Sequence record: OR352935.1
DNA from: Escherichia phage AV104
Strand: one strand, 5' to 3'
DNA: 43,102 nt
Of the stretch, positions 3,844 to 40,626 are shown one piece after another (the first letter of the stretch is position 1; each line of letters starts with the position of its first letter). Under the pieces are notes generated by a model. It was not told the origin of the DNA, did not search any database, and saw only the letters and a program-made list of their open reading frames with translations. The position numbers were made by a program, and so were the translations under genes.

Positions 3844-4304
3844 TGATGGGCTTTTTCAAAGTAACTGATGTACCTTCACGTCGCGTAGTCCAGTACGCCC
3901 GCGTGTCTGGCTCTGGCGAGAACGTGACCTACGTTGAGGATGAAAGTGTACTGGGTGAACCCGTAGACGAGATGCCATATGCGGATAAAACCGGTATCGC
4001 GCTGACGGCGGCAGGTATGCTCTATGAGATTCCGTATCTGGCAGATGCTGGCGACGTGTATTTCTCGGTACAACCGCGGGACACGGAACTGGCTGACGGC
4101 AGCGCAGCTATCACTGTCGAAGTTAAAGCGGGTAAAGCGCCATATACGCTGACCTGGTACAAAGACGGGAAGGAAGTGGTAAACGCCCCGGAAGAGGCTT
4201 TGTCCCTGACGGTTAACGCGACCGGCGAATACTTCGTTAAAGTTACTGATGCCGATGGTGTAGAGGCGGTGAGTAAAGCGGCGAAGGTTACTAAGCCAGA
4301 ATGA
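3843..4304 (+). CDS. hypothetical protein with C-terminal Ig-like domain (possible decoration protein)
   Basis: 153 aa; ATGA-type overlap with upstream stop; C-terminal TLTWYKDGKEV...GEYFVKVTDADG resembles Ig-like (I-set) fold signature. Confidence 0.45.
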   Translation: MMGFFKVTDVPSRRVVQYARVSGSGENVTYVEDESVLGEPVDEMPYADKTGIALTAAGMLYEIPYLADAGDVYFSVQPRDTELADGSAAITVEVKAGKAPYTLTWYKDGKEVVNAPEEALSLTVNATGEYFVKVTDADGVEAVSKAAKVTKPE

Positions 4305-4308
4305 TAAG

Positions 4309-4336
4309 AGGCCCCATAATGGGGCCTTAGATTTTT
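4309..4336. terminator. bidirectional hairpin terminator between convergent genes
   Basis: AGGCCCC-ATAAT-GGGGCCT stem-loop followed by TAGATTTTT. Confidence 0.55.
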
Positions 4337-4641
4337 CCTATTAGATTTTTAATTCTGTCGCGTTCTATTCTTTTCCCTTCTTCTACTCCCTCATTGAAGT
4401 ATCTTTCTACATCATCCTTATTGACCTTACGAACTGCTGCGCCCTCTTTATATAGCTCTTGATTGTCGCGCAATACCTTAATCTTAGCGATTATTTCATT
4501 AAAAGGTGCGTCAGCACGTATTTTGAGCATAGACCTTACCTGTTCTACGAACCATGCAAAATTAGGCTTTTTTGATAATTTCTCTCTTAAAACAGCGTTC
4601 TCTTGTTCCGCTTTTGTGGCGCGAGCACGATAATCAATCAT
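4327..4641 (-). CDS. hypothetical protein (reverse-strand accessory gene)
   Basis: 104 aa, Lys/Glu-rich; its own promoter motif lies at 4681-4710; opposite orientation to flanking structural genes. Confidence 0.5.
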   Translation of the reverse strand: MIDYRARATKAEQENAVLREKLSKKPNFAWFVEQVRSMLKIRADAPFNEIIAKIKVLRDNQELYKEGAAVRKVNKDDVERYFNEGVEEGKRIERDRIKNLIGKI

Positions 4642-4680
4642 TTTAGCAAACCTCTATCTTCATTAAACAGCACCAATAAC

Positions 4681-4710
4681 TGAATAGTACCCTATTATAT
4701 CGGGGCATGT
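4681..4710 (-). promoter_or_regulatory. promoter/operator motif (TGAATAGTACCCTATTATA) for gene 4327-4641
   Basis: minus-strand reading gives TATAATAGGGTACTATTCA, the same motif found in front of the early genes. Confidence 0.4.
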
Positions 4711-4778
4711 AAACTATTTATTTACGTATTCCAGTTATTCCCCTCAATTGTAAATGTTGGAATAAACTATTCGAATAG

Positions 4779-4807
4779 TTGACTTTTCACTGAAAATATG
4801 CTAAGCT
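4779..4807 (+). promoter_or_regulatory. sigma70-like promoter (TTGACT-17 bp-TAAGCT with extended TG), copy 1
   Basis: TTGACT at 4779-4784, 17 bp spacer, TGcTAAGCT; near-identical to 35881-35909; preceded by perfect palindrome ACTATTCGAATAGT (4766-4779). Confidence 0.5.
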
Positions 4808-4814
4808 CCACCTG

Positions 4815-4925
4815 AGCTTGTGAAGTATGAACAAGCGACCGCGGCGCGGGCAGGTAACGGAGCGGGACGTAAGTCCTGAGTGTAGTTACGCTGACGCGTT
4901 CGGAAGGGCCATACTCTATTGCTTG
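4815..4925 (+). ncRNA. candidate structured RNA element, copy 1 (paralogue of 35917-36026)
   Basis: about 110 nt conserved between two loci with shared blocks (GCGACCGCGG, GAGTGTAGTT, TTCGGAAGGGCC) and differing but complementary hairpin arms; no ORF longer than 9 codons; downstream terminator at 4988-5016. Confidence 0.3.
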
Positions 4926-4987
4926 TGTAAAAAGTAACTGGTTTACTGAGATTACGCCGTTTCTATGTTTAAATGATAAGGCCTAGC

Positions 4988-5016
4988 GCCCCGCTTTATG
5001 GCGGGGCTTTACTTAT
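4988..5016 (+). terminator. rho-independent terminator
   Basis: GCCCCGC-TTTATG-GCGGGGC stem followed by TTTACTT, just upstream of the spanin RBS. Confidence 0.5.
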
Positions 5017-5031
5017 CGAGAAAGGAGAAAC

Positions 5032-5418
5032 ATGAATCTTAAAGCAACTGTCGTAGCAGGAGCATGTTTCATCATCCTGTTATACACGCACGGCTACTAT
5101 CAATACCGCAGCGGCTGGAACGGAGGCAGGGCTAATCTAGTTTCGCAGCAACAGCAGAAAGCACAGGCTGAGTTAGCGAAGAAAACACAACGGCAGCAGC
5201 AGGACGAATCAAAGGCCGCCGCCGCTGACAACGAAGGCAAGACGAAATCAGAGGTGATTACCCGTGAAGTCGTTAAGTACATTAAAACGCCTGGCCGCAG
5301 CGTGTGCACTTTCGACGATGCTCGCGTCCTGCTCAAGTCCCGCGCCGTCGCAAACGCCAATTCCATCCCCGGATACGACGATGATGCAGCCGCCATGCAA
5401 ACTGGCCGCGCCAAGTAG
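5032..5418 (+). CDS. i-spanin (Rz-like)
   Basis: 128 aa; N-terminal transmembrane segment (VVAGACFIILLY) then Gln/Ala/Lys-rich coiled-coil region; overlapping out-of-frame lipoprotein ORF. Confidence 0.6.
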   Translation: MNLKATVVAGACFIILLYTHGYYQYRSGWNGGRANLVSQQQQKAQAELAKKTQRQQQDESKAAAADNEGKTKSEVITREVVKYIKTPGRSVCTFDDARVLLKSRAVANANSIPGYDDDAAAMQTGRAK

Positions 5419-5527
5419 CGATGCCGATGAGGATTTAGCCATTGACGTTCAGAACACAGAATGTGTACGGCAACTGCGTCTGAAAGTGTTCATGTTGCAG
5501 GATTACGTGAGGAATATTCTGGAATAG
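5264..5527 (+). CDS. o-spanin (Rz1-like outer-membrane lipoprotein), overlapped arrangement
   Basis: GTG start with GAGGTGA SD; signal peptide ending in lipobox LASC; Pro-rich mature region; starts inside the i-spanin gene in another frame and extends beyond it. Confidence 0.6.
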   Translation: MKSLSTLKRLAAACALSTMLASCSSPAPSQTPIPSPDTTMMQPPCKLAAPSSDADEDLAIDVQNTECVRQLRLKVFMLQDYVRNILE

Positions 5528-5609
5528 TTGCCTTGCATGTTGGAATAATTTATTCTTGACATGTAAATCCGGGTGGCCCGGATTCCAACGTCCAGGGGAC
5601 ATACCGACT

Positions 5610-6311
5610 ATGAATCATTTTTTACGTTATCCGTTCCAGGAAGAAGCTGGGGCAGAAGATAAAGCGGGTGGCGGTGACGCACCGAAAATGTTCACCGCTG
5701 AAGAAGTTCAGGCGCTGATTGAGAAAGAGGTTGCCGGGCTTAAGGCCAATCAGGAAGCATTGCTCGCGGAGAAGAAAGAAGCCGCTCGCAAAGCAAAAGA
5801 GGCCGAAGAAGAACGGCAGCGCGCGCACCAGGAGGCGTTAAAAGCCGCCGGTAAGATGGACGAGTTCGAAAAAACGATTCGTAGCCAGTATGACCCGGTG
5901 TTAGCCGAGAAAGATGGTCGCATCTCCAAAATGGCAGAGCGCATCCTCGGCAGCGAACGTAAAGCGGTGTTAGGCTCTTTCGCGGGCGACTTTATTACCC
6001 CGGAAGCAGTAGACATTCTTGCTCCGTTCGTTAAGACTGAGTTCGAAGGCGATGACGTGGTTACTAAGTTTGTTGGTGCGGATGGCAACGTAATCACGAC
6101 TGACCCGGAACAGTTCCGCAAATACCTGCGTGAACACAAAGCATTTTCGCATTTGATTAAAGCAAATGCAGCTTCCGGCGGCGGGGCTTCCGGTAGCAAA
6201 GGCGGCGGGGCCGCACCAGCGTTTAAAGACATGAGTGAAGCGGAGCGTTTAGCTCTGTATAAATCGAACCCTGCCGAATTTGAACGGCAACTTAAAGCCC
6301 TGAGGAAATAA
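5610..6311 (+). CDS. scaffolding protein
   Basis: Glu/Ala/Lys-rich coiled-coil protein immediately upstream of the major capsid gene; ATG at 5610 preferred over the track start 5556, which lies inside a hairpin. Confidence 0.6.
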   Translation: MNHFLRYPFQEEAGAEDKAGGGDAPKMFTAEEVQALIEKEVAGLKANQEALLAEKKEAARKAKEAEEERQRAHQEALKAAGKMDEFEKTIRSQYDPVLAEKDGRISKMAERILGSERKAVLGSFAGDFITPEAVDILAPFVKTEFEGDDVVTKFVGADGNVITTDPEQFRKYLREHKAFSHLIKANAASGGGASGSKGGGAAPAFKDMSEAERLALYKSNPAEFERQLKALRK

Positions 6312-6313
6312 TA

Positions 6314-7363
6314 ATGGCAATTACCACTATCGGCGATATCGTAACTGGCAACATCCCGGTCCTGGCGTCTTATATGACCGAGGACCCGGTAGAAAAAACC
6401 GCGTTCTTTCAGTCAGGTATTTTGACCCCGACTCCGTACGCTGCCGAGATTGCTCGCGGCCCGTCCAACGTCGCTAACATTCCTTTCTGGAAAGCGATTG
6501 ATACCTCTATCGAGCCTAACTACTCGAACGACGTATACCAGGACATCGCCACCCCGCGTAACGTGCAGACCGGTGAGATGATGGCCCGCGTTGCATACCT
6601 GAACGAAGGTTTCGGTCAGGCGGACCTGACTGTCGAACTGACCAGCCAGAACCCGCTGCAATCTGTGGCTTCTCGCCTGGATAACTTCTGGCAGCGCCAG
6701 GCACAACGCCGTCTTATTGCTACCGCGCTCGGTCTGTACAATGACAACGTAGCCGCTACCGACGCATACCACGAGCAGAACGACATGGTAATCGACGTGT
6801 CCTCTACTCTGGGCTTCGACGCGGGCGCGTTCATCGACGCTACCCAGACTATGGGTGATGCGCTGATGGGTAACGGCGGTGAAGTGCTGGGTGCTATCGC
6901 GATGCACAGCTTCGTATATGCGCAGGCCCGTAAGCAGCAGCTTATTGACTTCATCAAAGACGCTGACAACGACACCATGTTTGCCACCTACCAGGGCTAC
7001 CGCGTGATTGTTGACGACAGCATGACTGTAGTTGGTACTGGCCCGACCCGTAAGTTCATCTCCATCATCTTCGGCAACGGCGCTATCGGTTACGGTGAAG
7101 GCAATCCGGTCAAACCACTGCACTACGAGTATGAAGCGTCTCGTGGTAACGGCGGCGGCGTAGAAACCCTGTGGACCCGTAAGACCTGGTTGATGCACCC
7201 GCTGGGTTACAGCTTCACCAGCGCGGTAATCACTGGCAACGGCACCGAGACTATCGCCCGCTCTGCTTCATGGCAGGACCTGGCGAACGCCTCCAACTGG
7301 AACCGTGTGGTTGACCGTAAGCATGTACCGATTGCCTTCCTGGTAACTGGTGTCGGGGCTTAA
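6314..7363 (+). CDS. major capsid protein
   Basis: 349 aa ORF directly after scaffold, followed by a strong terminator; position and size. Confidence 0.75.
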   Translation: MAITTIGDIVTGNIPVLASYMTEDPVEKTAFFQSGILTPTPYAAEIARGPSNVANIPFWKAIDTSIEPNYSNDVYQDIATPRNVQTGEMMARVAYLNEGFGQADLTVELTSQNPLQSVASRLDNFWQRQAQRRLIATALGLYNDNVAATDAYHEQNDMVIDVSSTLGFDAGAFIDATQTMGDALMGNGGEVLGAIAMHSFVYAQARKQQLIDFIKDADNDTMFATYQGYRVIVDDSMTVVGTGPTRKFISIIFGNGAIGYGEGNPVKPLHYEYEASRGNGGGVETLWTRKTWLMHPLGYSFTSAVITGNGTETIARSASWQDLANASNWNRVVDRKHVPIAFLVTGVGA

Positions 7364-13735: not shown

Positions 13736-13768
13736 TGAATAGTACCCTATTATATTGGGGTGTGCAAG
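13736..13768 (-). promoter_or_regulatory. promoter of reverse island (TTGCAC-17-TACTAT containing TATAATAGGG motif)
   Basis: minus-strand reads CTTGCACACCCCAATATAATAGGGTACTATTCA, almost identical to the promoters at 36190 and 37632. Confidence 0.45.
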
Positions 13769-35775: not shown

Positions 35776-35815
35776 TTCGCGCTCTCCTGTGTAAGATGTA
35801 TCGAAGTATAAGGCG

Positions 35816-35855
35816 GTAACTTTGTAAAAGCAACCAAAACTGAACACAAAGTTAC
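35816..35855. repeat. 10-bp perfect inverted repeat GTAACTTTGT / ACAAAGTTAC separated by 20 bp
   Basis: read directly; lies between divergent promoters (AlpA-like operon leftward, RNA element rightward). Confidence 0.6.
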
Positions 35856-35880
35856 TAAGATACAAAAGATGCTACTGGTA

Positions 35881-35909
35881 TTGACTTTTACTTAAAAATA
35901 TGCTAAGCT
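35881..35909 (+). promoter_or_regulatory. sigma70-like promoter (TTGACT-17 bp-TAAGCT with extended TG), copy 2
   Basis: near-identical to 4779-4807. Confidence 0.5.
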
Positions 35910-35916
35910 TCACTGA

Positions 35917-36026
35917 GCTTGTGAGATATCGCAAGCGACCGCGGAGCGGCAGGGAACGCAACGCGTGCCATTAGGCACTTGAGTGTAGTTCCGCTGGCGC
36001 TTTCGGAAGGGCCAAAGTCTATTGTT
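35917..36026 (+). ncRNA. candidate structured RNA element, copy 2
   Basis: paralogue of 4815-4925 with compensatory hairpin (GUGCC-AUUA-GGCAC here versus GGGAC-GUAA-GUCCU in copy 1); followed by a large hairpin at 36091-36150. Confidence 0.3.
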
Positions 36027-36090
36027 AATCCCGCCTAAATACCCAAGTCACTGATAATTAAAAGTTTCTATAGTTGCCGTAAGCAAGGTG

Positions 36091-36150
36091 GAGAGTACTT
36101 CACTCCGCTGGGGTGGGCTAACGCCCACCCACTGCGTTGCGTACTCTTTT
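36091..36150 (+). terminator. complex hairpin / possible terminator
   Basis: GGGTGGGC-TAAC-GCCCACCC inner stem, outer GAGAGTAC/GTACTCTT pairing, then TTTT. Confidence 0.35.
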
Positions 36151-36189: not shown

Positions 36190-36218
36190 TTGCACACCCC
36201 AACATAATAGGATACTAT
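36190..36218 (+). promoter_or_regulatory. early promoter (TTGCAC-17-TACTAT, spacer contains CATAATAGG)
   Basis: conserved with 37632-37660 and minus-strand 13736-13768; followed by conserved leader TTATCGAAACGAGA..GAGGAG. Confidence 0.45.
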
Positions 36219-36252
36219 TCACTTATCGAAACGAGACAGAGGAGTGAGGGTT

Positions 36253-37453: not shown

Positions 37454-37624
37454 ATGAAACTGAATGACATCGTAACCTGGACTGGTAGAAACGGAGAAAA
37501 GCGATTCGGGCTTATTGTTGCGCCAGACGGCAACAAGTACCGTGTTATGCGATGGCGTCAGTGGGCACGACGCCCGAGGTACTACTGGATCCGTGGCGAA
37601 CGATTATCTTTAAAACACCAATAA
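37454..37624 (+). CDS. small basic hypothetical protein (56 aa)
   Basis: ATG with AGGAG RBS; Arg/Trp-rich. Confidence 0.4.
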   Translation: MKLNDIVTWTGRNGEKRFGLIVAPDGNKYRVMRWRQWARRPRYYWIRGERLSLKHQ

Positions 37625-37631
37625 AATTTAC

Positions 37632-37660
37632 TTGCACACACAGATATAATAGACTACTAT
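37632..37660 (+). promoter_or_regulatory. early promoter (TTGCAC-17-TACTAT, spacer contains TATAATAG)
   Basis: same architecture and leader (GTTATCGAAACGAGAGGAG) as 36190-36243. Confidence 0.45.
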
Positions 37661-37691
37661 TCAGTTATCGAAACGAGAGGAGAGAGAGAAG

Positions 37692-39274: not shown

Positions 39275-39583
39275 TTGGATAAATTTACTGAAACAGTGAC
39301 GGGCTGGCTTCTCGCTGCCGCACTCGCCGGAGGGGTCATCGGACTACGACAACATAAGTCCGTTATTTCTGGCCCTATCGACGGCTTCTGCTTCATCGCT
39401 ACTGGTTTCGCCTGCGCCGTATTTGGCGCCCCTCTTGCAGCTCAATGGTTCGGTATCACGGGCGACCGTGAAATCGCTGGCCTGGGCTTTATCATCGCTA
39501 TTCTCTGGATGCCTATTTATTCCCGTCTCTCCGGTATTGTTGCCGGAGAATACATCTCACGTCGAGGAGGCCCGGATGAATGA
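39275..39583 (+). CDS. holin-like membrane protein
   Basis: 102 aa with about three hydrophobic helices; TTG start; directly upstream of a second membrane protein and the endolysin. Confidence 0.55.
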   Translation: MDKFTETVTGWLLAAALAGGVIGLRQHKSVISGPIDGFCFIATGFACAVFGAPLAAQWFGITGDREIAGLGFIIAILWMPIYSRLSGIVAGEYISRRGGPDE

Positions 39584-39848
39584 GTTATTCTGGTTCGCCG
39601 TAATGTTGGCGATGGGCGCTTCGTCCCTGTTCAACGTGTATAATGAATGTGTTGACGACGGGCTATTCGGTCGGGTGCTCTATATCCTGACTGCTATCGT
39701 CTGCGCTGCCGGATGCATCCACCTGTTACATGGCAGCATGTCGCCAACGCTGCCTGAGACATTAATCACATTAGTCGCGCTGCGCCAGATTCGTCAGGCG
39801 TGGCTGTCATACGGAGGGCATAAGCGTGTCTCGAAACATTTCAGATAA
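39576..39848 (+). CDS. second lysis-cassette membrane protein (holin/antiholin-like)
   Basis: 90 aa, two hydrophobic helices; ATG overlaps the holin stop (ATGAATGA). Confidence 0.45.
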   Translation: MNELFWFAVMLAMGASSLFNVYNECVDDGLFGRVLYILTAIVCAAGCIHLLHGSMSPTLPETLITLVALRQIRQAWLSYGGHKRVSKHFR

Positions 39849-40311
39849 TGGATTGCATTTTACCGCCGCGTTCGAGGGATTCCGTGGAACTGCGTATCGT
39901 GCTACGCCGAACGAGAAGTACCTTACCATAGGCTACGGCCACTACGGGCCGGACGTAACACCAGGTAAGACCATCACACCAGGACAGGGCTTGCTGTTAC
40001 TGAATCGCGATATGGCTAAGGCTGTAGCTGCGGTTGATGCAGCGGCACACCATTCATTAACACAGGCGCAGTTCGATGCAGTGTGTGACCTGGTGTATAA
40101 CGCGGGCGCCGGCGTGATTGCGTCTACTACGGGCACGGGTAAGGCTCTGCGTTACGGTGATATTCCGACGCTGCGGGCTAAGCTGGCGCTGTTCATCAAC
40201 CAGAACGGCAAACCGTTACTCGGCCTGCGTCGCCGTACCGCAGGCCGCCTGGCGCTGTTCGATGGTAAGCCGTGGCAAGAGGCTGAGGCTATCGGGAGGG
40301 CTGTTAAATGA
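39826..40311 (+). CDS. endolysin (phage lysozyme, GH24-like)
   Basis: 161 aa; N-terminal FEGFRGTAYRATPNEKYLTIGYGHY matches the lysozyme catalytic region pattern. Confidence 0.75.
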   Translation: MSRNISDNGLHFTAAFEGFRGTAYRATPNEKYLTIGYGHYGPDVTPGKTITPGQGLLLLNRDMAKAVAAVDAAAHHSLTQAQFDAVCDLVYNAGAGVIASTTGTGKALRYGDIPTLRAKLALFINQNGKPLLGLRRRTAGRLALFDGKPWQEAEAIGRAVK

Positions 40312-40438: not shown

Positions 40439-40470
40439 AAACCCGGACCGCGAATCCGGGTTTTATTTTA
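40439..40470 (+). terminator. rho-independent terminator
   Basis: ACCCGGA-CCGCGAA-TCCGGGT followed by TTTTATTTT. Confidence 0.6.
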
Positions 40471-40542
40471 CCAATTGACACCTAAGACTAATCCGACGAT
40501 ACTTAAATCACCTCCTGTTCCATCCCTCTGCTCTCCAGTTTT

Positions 40543-40576
40543 ATCCCGGCCCTGACCCAGCCGGGATTTTTTTTTA
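40543..40576 (+). terminator. rho-independent terminator
   Basis: ATCCCGGC-loop-GCCGGGAT followed by TTTTTTTTT. Confidence 0.65.
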
Positions 40577-40597
40577 TCTGTTTTCCACAATGACTAG

Positions 40598-40626
40598 TTG
40601 ACTATTACCATCGACCCTATTATATT
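40598..40626 (+). promoter_or_regulatory. sigma70-like promoter TTGACT-17-TATATT
   Basis: canonical spacing; spacer contains CCCTATTATA motif; followed by leader ...CGACAACGAGAACGGAG and ATG at 40660. Confidence 0.5.

Follow-up and report, generated by a model that had tools for sequence, protein, structure and literature searches.

The overlapped i-spanin and o-spanin genes of Escherichia phage AV104 are probably expressed from a message that starts at the promoter of a conserved structured RNA and passes a hairpin located just ahead of the i-spanin gene. Judging from the sequence of the phage and its relatives, we put the probability of such a start and passage at roughly 0.6. The DNA analysed (record OR352935.1; 43,102 nucleotides, hereafter the window) is a complete genome of Kagunavirus (Guernseyvirinae, Jersey-like siphophages) opened at the start of TerL. 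The ATG of TerL is base 1 and the TerS ORF crosses the end of the window, so the 'junction' of the map is a mere cut point of a circular map. In a megablast search with region 4300-6400, which matched 455 phage records, the best relative was Kagunavirus LM08P1 (97.8% identity across the full query), followed by LM08P2, hz69 and the BASEL phages Bas71-76. The gene order is the same as in Bas76 and in the Jerseyvirus Shelanagig.

The features of the spanin region are as follows.

4308-4328, bidirectional: intrinsic terminator closing the terminase-portal-head morphogenesis-Hoc-like operon
4327-4641, minus strand: variable small gene (104 aa, no assigned function), convergent with the head operon
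4760-4772: palindrome GAATAaacTATTC, a candidate operator, 6 nt upstream of the -35 of the RNA promoter
4779-4807, plus strand: candidate promoter of the RNA and leader (TTGACT, 17-nt spacer, TG at 4799-4800, TAAGCT at 4802-4807)
4814-4926, plus strand: conserved structured RNA core (P1 hairpin, long three-part P2 helix, invariant single-stranded GAAGGGCC)
4974-5018, plus strand: extended interrupted hairpin with a GC-rich tip at 4988-5007, then UUUACUUAU; putative leaky terminator
5022-5027, plus strand: Shine-Dalgarno sequence AAGGAG of the i-spanin gene, read from the sequence
5032-5418, plus strand: i-spanin gene of the Jersey family (128 aa; from ORF, PHROG match and hydropathy)
5264-5527, plus strand: o-spanin gene (87 aa; GTG start, lipobox LASC, Cys23, Cys45, Cys67)
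5516-5609, plus strand: near-invariant non-coding block before the scaffold gene (repeats, palindrome, candidate promoter, hairpin)

Candidate promoter of the spanin module

In a lenient promoter scan, TTGACT-17-TGcTAAGCT (4779-4807) ranked first among the plus-strand candidates in 4329-5612. Only 3 of the 6 positions in its -10 hexamer, TAAGCT, agree with the consensus, and the hexamer depends on the TG extension. The promoter is identical in a second copy of the RNA elsewhere in the genome and is kept as TAGACT-17-TGtTACGCT in Jerseyvirus; the predicted start of its transcript is at about 4814. Between the hairpin 4988-5007 and the ATG of the i-spanin gene there are 24 nt, the Shine-Dalgarno sequence included, so that no promoter fits between the two. 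As far as can be read from the sequence, the only good plus-strand promoter before the spanin ATG would be that of the RNA. With this promoter upstream and the scaffold control region downstream, the spanins are the only protein genes between these two, an arrangement that the readthrough proposal requires.

In the scheme that we propose, transcription would begin at 4779-4807, a promoter of the sigma-70 extended -10 type, and the transcript would lead with the conserved structured RNA, in effect a 5' leader of about 200 nt for the spanin message. The hairpin 4988-5007 would stop or process part of the transcripts; the spanins would be translated from the fraction that continues past it, and the strong Shine-Dalgarno sequence would give enough spanin. 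Spanins act only once the cell wall has been degraded, as established for lambda, so early or constitutive synthesis would be harmless. The sequences show the identity and architecture of the genes, how the signals are laid out, and that RNA and hairpin are conserved and covary; the activity of the promoter, the readthrough fraction and the timing of spanin transcription are what we infer. Nothing relevant was found in the searched literature on transcriptome or small-RNA work with Guernseyvirinae, Jerseyvirus or Kagunavirus.

A conserved structured RNA upstream of the spanin genes

The RNA core at 4814-4926 scored 146.6 bits with a covariance model (R1). By scanning IMG/VR for the invariant CGCNTTCGGAAGGGCC, we obtained 74 DNA stretches, and 49 loci carry the RNA element; together with the two copies of the window, these loci gave 30 distinct sequences. 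Five variants could be told apart (Kagunavirus copy 1, copy 2, one variant form of each, and copy 1 of Jerseyvirus), and all of them have a common fold, with a short P1 hairpin, a long three-part P2 and the single-stranded GAAGGGCC. At one pair of the basal stem, 9 sequences have U-A, 8 have C-G and 2 have A-U. The covariance model built from copy-1 sequences scored copy 2 at 84 bits and the Jerseyvirus element at 42 bits. In alignment A7, which was fitted to the model, 93% of the cells were paired (28-43% in slid controls), 16 of the 29 pairs were changed on both sides, and the covariation score was 0.34, compared with at most 0.05 in slid controls. On this covariation, the element is a real structured RNA.

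The same region contains a 36-aa ORF (4827-4937) that is given as hypothetical in Bas76 and Shelanagig. We rejected it as a leader peptide: indels or stops break its frame in variants A', L012, L016 and B, and the pairing is kept. Over the whole window, Rfam 15 gave no match at gathering thresholds. At permissive E-values, the best Rfam hit in 4700-5100 was wcaG, which at 18.6 bits against a cut-off of 42 bits is not credible. No tRNA or tmRNA was found. Antisense targets of GAAGGGCC in the phage genome were at the level of chance (15 observed, 10.5 expected).

The RNA region is 95-99% identical in 180 records and is thus conserved better than the spanin protein, for which most records show 60-80% identity. 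Among the Kagunavirus-type and Jerseyvirus-type loci, all those long enough to show it have the spanin genes directly after the RNA. In TS6, the covariance-model search returned a weak match of similar shape (6.1 bits, E 0.15).

The hairpin between the RNA and the i-spanin gene

The stem at 4988-5007 has 8 bp, 7 of them G-C pairs, with a free energy of -17.9 kcal/mol. Its tail, UUUACUUAU, is the weakest U-tract among the plus-strand terminators of the genome, the others having UUUUCAUUU, UUUUUCUUU, UUUUAUUUU and U9. At the corresponding place Jerseyvirus has UUAGCGUAU and TS6 has UGUUACGAG; the U-tract does not appear to be conserved. In all three lineages the stem caps an interrupted helix of some 17 bp, and the supposed tail is the lower strand of that helix. 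The lower helix is formed by GAUAAG/CUUAUC in the window and by UAUACG/CGUAUA plus UUAA/UUAG in Jerseyvirus, and both Jerseyvirus and TS6 have an equivalent long hairpin of different sequence. Compensatory changes were seen in the hairpin at two loci, from C-G to U-A in L006 and from G-C to A-U in the Jerseyvirus locus L062. By the measure of these sequence changes, selection acts on the hairpin. Shelanagig's annotation by CPT, the Center for Phage Technology, has no terminator at the hairpin site.

A weak U-tract, apparently unconserved, combined with an extended helix of about 17 bp points to a leaky terminator, or to a processing or stability element of the leader, rather than to a firm stop. 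Three readings suit the sequence: a leaky terminator whose flanks are complementary, a processing site of the RNase III type, or a stem that stabilises the RNA. The preliminary description, made from the letters of the window alone, had placed the spanin pair directly downstream of RNA copy 1 and its terminator, and had suggested that the spanins may depend on readthrough of that terminator, their expression being coupled to the RNA element. The arrangement is as described, with the promoter, the RNA and, 24 nt ahead of the ATG, the hairpin all in place. As to readthrough, the terminator at 4308-4328, the convergent gene behind it and the RNA promoter as the sole good one all speak for a message that comes through the RNA, but 'terminator readthrough' says too much for a hairpin that has the poorest U-tract, one apparently not conserved in relatives, and is the tip of a helix of about 17 bp. 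A coupling of spanin expression to the RNA element is plausible on these sequence features.

The second copy and possible functions of the RNA

The second copy of the RNA lies in another part of the genome.

35881-36150, plus strand: promoter and RNA copy 2 (core 35915-36029; compound terminator at about 36090-36150)

It is followed by a downstream promoter of its own, TTGCAC-17-TACTAT, for the genes from 36254. In a covariance-model search (early region of Bas76 included), copy 2 was not detected in Bas76 or Shelanagig, and only about 42 of the 180 records have a second place for the RNA. Since copy 2 is absent from many relatives, copy 1, which adjoins the spanins, is the constant copy. Copy 2 has no spanins behind it, and this shows a separate role for the RNA. 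Its compound terminator is stronger than the copy-1 hairpin; that the copy with no need of readthrough has the much better terminator favours a copy-1 hairpin tuned to leak, as far as the two sequences can tell.

It is possible, with a rather low probability, that the RNA does more than lead the message and is an active cis-regulator, either a put-like antiterminator or a ligand- or protein-sensing attenuator. Such a role would refine the leader view: how much transcription enters the spanins, and perhaps the scaffold and capsid genes further on, would be under control and not simply a matter of leakage. The promoter-proximal position of the RNA, its two stem-loop domains, its strong covariation and its invariant single-stranded nucleotides would suit this role, as would the hairpin or terminator 3' of both copies, the several further plus-strand terminators within the late region and the better conservation of this non-coding RNA than of the spanin protein. 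However, we found no alternative antiterminator pairing that competes with the hairpin, copy 2 is missing from many relatives and has an independent promoter downstream of it, and neither an Rfam family match nor an experimental hint points to regulation. We would only tentatively consider the RNA a new class of phage cis-regulatory leader (antiterminator, attenuator or processing signal) that sets the timing and amount of spanin and possibly scaffold and capsid transcription, with a duplicate that, in some genomes, would control the early-right operon that ends in holin and endolysin.

Less probable still is that the RNA is an independent trans-acting sRNA that ends efficiently at the hairpin, the spanin message starting at a weak internal promoter candidate (4942-4969) with the hairpin as its 5' stabilising stem. 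TTTACT-16-TATGTT at this place would put the transcript start at about 4976, the foot of the extended helix, and a candidate promoter followed by a 5' hairpin is also the pattern at the scaffold gene; copy 2, for its part, resembles a free-standing sRNA gene with a good terminator. Yet this candidate matches the consensus at only 8 of 12 positions and lacks a TG extension. Its -35 and spacing are not conserved in Jerseyvirus, and locus L058 has TGTGTT, in which the key A of the -10 is lost.

Upstream boundary and scaffold control block

The terminator at 4308-4328 consists of a GC-rich stem of 9 bp (folded stretch, -17.1 kcal/mol) and, behind it, AGAUUUUU; an equivalent terminator is found 3' of the decoration gene in Shelanagig. 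It is predicted from its sequence to insulate the spanin module from upstream plus-strand transcription. The minus-strand gene at 4327-4641 has a candidate promoter, TTTACA-18-TACTAT, at 4684-4713; Bas76 has a different gene, of 204 nt, in its place, and most relatives share the megablast query only from about 4677 on.

Expression of the spanins mainly from the upstream packaging and head operon, as part of one long late transcript running through the 4308-4328 terminator, appears quite improbable. All genes from 36.2 kb across the junction to 11.4 kb are on one strand, and attenuating terminators are common within late operons; but the stem and U-run of this terminator are good, a convergent gene that has a promoter of its own comes next, and the way from the terminator to the spanins includes a conserved strong promoter. 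Transcription may to some extent read through the terminator at 4308.

The palindrome at 4760-4772 is of the form GAATA-N3-TATTC, a motif that the genomes of the window, Bas76, Shelanagig and TS6 each contain exactly twice. The 12-mer ATGTTGGAATAA does not by itself stand out statistically as a repeat, and its inner palindrome is the meaningful part. On the other side of the spanin genes, the block before the scaffold gene contains GGAATA repeats (5511, 5521 and 5542), the palindrome GAATAattTATTC (5543-5555), a hairpin (5565-5584) and a candidate extended -10 promoter, TGGAAT-18-TGgAATAAT (5520-5549). The 95 nt preceding the scaffold ATG are almost invariant across Kagunavirus, Shelanagig and TS6, and in TS6 the block remains with the scaffold gene though an extra gene parts it from the spanins. 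A TTGACA at 5556 was dropped as the -35 of a scaffold promoter because no -10 follows it; TGGAAT-18-TGgAATAAT is the better fit to the conserved block.

The spanin genes and proteins

The two ORFs are almost certainly spanins of the Jersey family. The i-spanin matched PHROG 2536 ('Rz-like spanin') with an E-value of 2e-55. Its residues 3-17 (LKATVVAGACFIILL) form the best 15-aa hydropathy window (mean 2.3), a single N-terminal helix; the rest of the protein is polar and charged, with one periplasmic Cys. The o-spanin ORF, in the +1 frame, overlaps the 3' end of the i-spanin gene by 155 nt (5264-5418), and its GTG start is preceded by the Shine-Dalgarno sequence GAGGTG (5251-5256). It matched two profiles of Rz-like spanins, PHROG 5672 (E 4e-30) and PHROG 1267 (E 8e-18). 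Its N-terminus, MKSLSTLKRLAAACALSTMLAS-C23-SS, is a standard lipoprotein signal with the lipobox L-A-S-C; the residue at +2 is Ser and not Asp, as expected for sorting to the outer membrane. The protein has eight prolines and the periplasmic residues Cys45 and Cys67. From family membership, the i-spanin in the inner membrane and the o-spanin, as an outer-membrane lipoprotein, would fuse both membranes once the cell wall has been broken down by holin and endolysin.

The GenBank records of many relatives give the o-spanin as a 47-aa fragment that lacks the lipobox.

A tblastn search found i-spanin homologues in 506 records. One of them is in a lambdoid Klebsiella prophage, in which a homologue with 38% identity lies directly after holin and lysozyme, downstream of Q; the lipoprotein ORF that it overlaps has the lipobox LCSC and 45% identity to the o-spanin of the window. 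The same gene pair thus fills the canonical Rz/Rz1 slot elsewhere.

That the two ORFs are relics or proteins with another role, rather than working spanins, is very improbable: they lie outside the lysis cassette and, to our knowledge, no Jersey-family spanin has been genetically tested, but both ORFs, with their signal sequences, cysteines and overlap, persist across more than 500 phage records at identities as low as 38%, homologues also occur in canonical lysis cassettes, and the genome has no other spanin candidate.

Position of the pair relative to the lysis cassette

The lysis genes and the end of their transcription unit are located near the right end of the map.

39275-40311, plus strand: lysis cassette (holin 39275-39583, second holin or antiholin 39576-39848, endolysin 39826-40311)
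40441-40470, plus strand: intrinsic terminator closing the transcription unit of the lysis cassette

The endolysin matched Pfam Phage_lysozyme with an E-value of 1.5e-26. The start of the i-spanin gene is 7,822 nt downstream of the endolysin stop, on the same strand and counted across the map junction, and the pair is positioned between a head-decoration gene and the scaffold gene. In Guernseyvirinae it forms a small module there, with the strong terminator as its upstream border and the conserved control region of the scaffold gene as its downstream border. It does not lie beside the holin and endolysin genes, a placement that is usual for spanins without defining them. These results bear out what the preliminary description had read from the sequence: an overlapped i-spanin/o-spanin pair (here with PHROG matches, membrane helix, lipobox and the 155-nt overlap at the ORF coordinates given there), set between head genes as in the Shelanagig annotation, about 8 kb from a holin-endolysin cassette at 39.3-40.3 kb, in which we found two holins and a lysozyme-family endolysin.

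Another spanin next to the endolysin had been named there as one finding that would count against the claim. We looked for one by a six-frame scan of the genome for lipobox ORFs and by inspecting the flank of the endolysin gene. No second lipobox ORF with a ribosome-binding site was found in the genome besides the ORF at 5264; the other matches of the scan were inside the membrane helix of a holin or in unlikely antisense ORFs. Directly 3' of the endolysin gene there are only a 7-codon ORF, the terminator and, past it, two promoters, TTGACA-17-GATACT (40475-40503) and TTGACT-17-TATATT (40598-40626). With no candidate from either search, a second spanin near the endolysin was ruled out.

The identity of the spanins, their overlap, their position among head genes and their distance from the lysis cassette were already known for this phage group from published work. 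The 'Jersey' family of overlapped two-component spanins was defined by Kongari et al. 2018 (PMC6139136), with Jersey, SETP3, K1G, K1H, K1ind1-3 and others listed as members, a 155-bp overlap and constant o-spanin Cys residues at 45 and 67. The pair of the window has the same protein families, overlap, Cys45/Cys67, i-spanin length and genome position; nothing material differs, and the pair is a member. The separation of spanins from holin and endolysin is in print in the genome announcement of Kagunavirus Schulenberg, a phage 98% identical to the window in the upstream RNA region. Likewise, the Golestan paper gives the spanins as ORF7-8 and the holins and endolysin as ORF66-68. In Shelanagig, the CPT annotation has two genes named i-spanin and o-spanin, flanked by the capsid decoration gene and the scaffold gene.

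Significance

In itself the finding carries little weight: a spanin location apart from the lysis cassette is on record for this very genus, and the family is a curated one. It has some value for annotation: the start of the o-spanin is the GTG at 5264 rather than that of a 47-aa fragment, and the 36-aa 'hypothetical protein' upstream is an RNA and not a gene. The more interesting by-product is that the spanin message appears to begin with an undescribed, strongly covarying RNA that is conserved better than the proteins around it. If this RNA controls readthrough, it would offer an experimentally easy case of RNA-based control of lysis genes in a phage with no known late regulator. Two parts deserve a separate look, namely this leader RNA and the pair of palindromic sites on either side of the spanin module.

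Comparison with known systems

The pair is of the same kind as Rz/Rz1 of lambda, a type II inner-membrane protein and an outer-membrane lipoprotein encoded by shared DNA and acting last in lysis. Rz1 is fully embedded in Rz, whereas the genes of the window only overlap, and the lambda pair ends the S-R-Rz/Rz1 cassette, whereas that of the window belongs to a different transcription unit, 7.8 kb past the endolysin. Sequence similarity to lambda Rz was not detectable, and Pfam gave only a sub-threshold match to DUF2514. The spanins of T4, pseT.3/pseT.2, are likewise unlinked from holin and endolysin; lysis genes of T4-like phages are unclustered, according to Kongari et al. 2018 (PMC6139136). 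T4 and the window differ in protein families, genome type and regulation, the latter by late promoters in T4.

For the leader, the closest parallels are the lambda late leader and the put sites of HK022. In lambda, the promoter PR' is followed by the 6S RNA of about 194 nt, the terminator tR' and then S, R, Rz and Rz1, and the Q protein is required for passing the strong tR'. Both in lambda and in the window, a sigma-70 promoter is followed by a leader RNA of about 200 nt that ends in a hairpin, and then by lysis genes. The window differs in the weak U-tract of its hairpin and in having a covarying structured RNA as the leader; at the level of annotation, neither Bas76 nor Shelanagig has a Q-family antiterminator. 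In HK022, putL and putR are two copies per genome, each just 3' of a promoter and upstream of terminators, with stem-loops that show compensatory changes. The window RNA departs from them in that its copy 2 is dispensable in many relatives; what it shares with put is the layout alone, namely two copies, a promoter-proximal position, covarying stem-loops and terminators downstream.

A structured RNA in two copies

The window carries two copies of a structured RNA, the first upstream of the spanin genes, and the same promoter precedes both copies.

4814-4926, structured RNA core, copy 1 (full element about 4779-5018)
35915-36029, structured RNA core, copy 2 (full element about 35881-36150)

The RNA folds into a short-range hairpin (P1) and a helix in three parts (P2), and it also carries the invariant GAAGGGCC. 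When Kagunavirus and Jerseyvirus variants were compared, compensatory changes were found at 16 of its 29 pairs, and Rfam contained no match for it. The element is a previously undescribed RNA family, of which many relatives lack copy 2. A 36-aa open reading frame (4827-4937), annotated in relatives as a hypothetical protein (Bas76_0007, Shelanagig gp07), was rejected as a protein gene: it lies inside the RNA, and its reading frame is not conserved.

Back to back with the promoter of copy 2 stands a leftward promoter, and the pair is predicted to form a divergent early control region.

35777-35880, minus strand, promoter TTGCTT-17-TATACT serving an HTH gene and the replication operon

The spanin module and its flanks

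The true start of the o-spanin gene is GTG 5264. In many GenBank relatives (for example Bas76_0009), the region corresponding to 5264-5383 is affected by annotation of the protein as a 47-aa fragment starting from Met41, with neither signal peptide nor lipobox; PHROG 5672, with 47 positions, mirrors this truncation.

A palindrome, GAATA-N3-TATTC, occurs exactly twice in each of four genomes, against a chance expectation of about 0.1.

Window, 4760-4772 and 5543-5555
Bas76, a relative, 5215 and 5998
Shelanagig, a Jerseyvirus, 5778 and 6534
TS6, a relative with an extra gene between spanins and scaffold block, 2852 and 3455

One site lies upstream of the RNA promoter and the other in the scaffold control block, with the spanin module between them. 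Because of this count and placement, the palindrome is suggested to be an operator bound by a phage regulator that acts as a dimer. The first of the two TS6 sites falls at the start codon of the separated-type o-spanin and adjoins AATAGTTGGAATAA; it looks as though the signal peptide had acquired regulatory DNA as part of its coding sequence.

The scaffold control block (5516-5609, 95 nt upstream of the scaffold gene) is nearly invariant across genera, whereas the spanin proteins of the same genera are only about 53-66% identical.

5511, 5521 and 5542, phased GGAATA repeats
within 5516-5609, candidate extended -10 promoter
within 5516-5609, hairpin CCGGGTGGCCCGG

A recurrent promoter and transcription of the lysis cassette

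Near-identical promoter regions sharing ATAATAGGnTACTATTCA and the -10 sequence TACTAT are found at four places and probably constitute one temporal class.

4676-4722, minus strand
13736-13760, minus strand
36197-36226, plus strand
37620-37668, plus strand

Such promoters stand upstream of a variable gene, of a minus-strand nuclease operon within the tail genes, and of a small-gene operon running toward the lysis cassette.

4327-4641, minus strand, small gene (PHROG 10768/16432), site variable among relatives

Alignment of most relatives to the window begins only at about 4677, and Bas76 has a different gene of 204 nt in place of 4327-4641; judged from these comparisons, this locus between head genes appears to be a place where morons insert.

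The lysis cassette is followed by its own terminator, a second terminator and two consensus-like promoters.

40441-40626, region after the lysis cassette (second terminator, 40543-40580; promoters, 40475 and 40598)

Because terminators and new promoters follow the cassette, the holin and endolysin genes are assigned, on predicted signals, to a transcription unit starting near 36.2 kb and not to the packaging/head unit.
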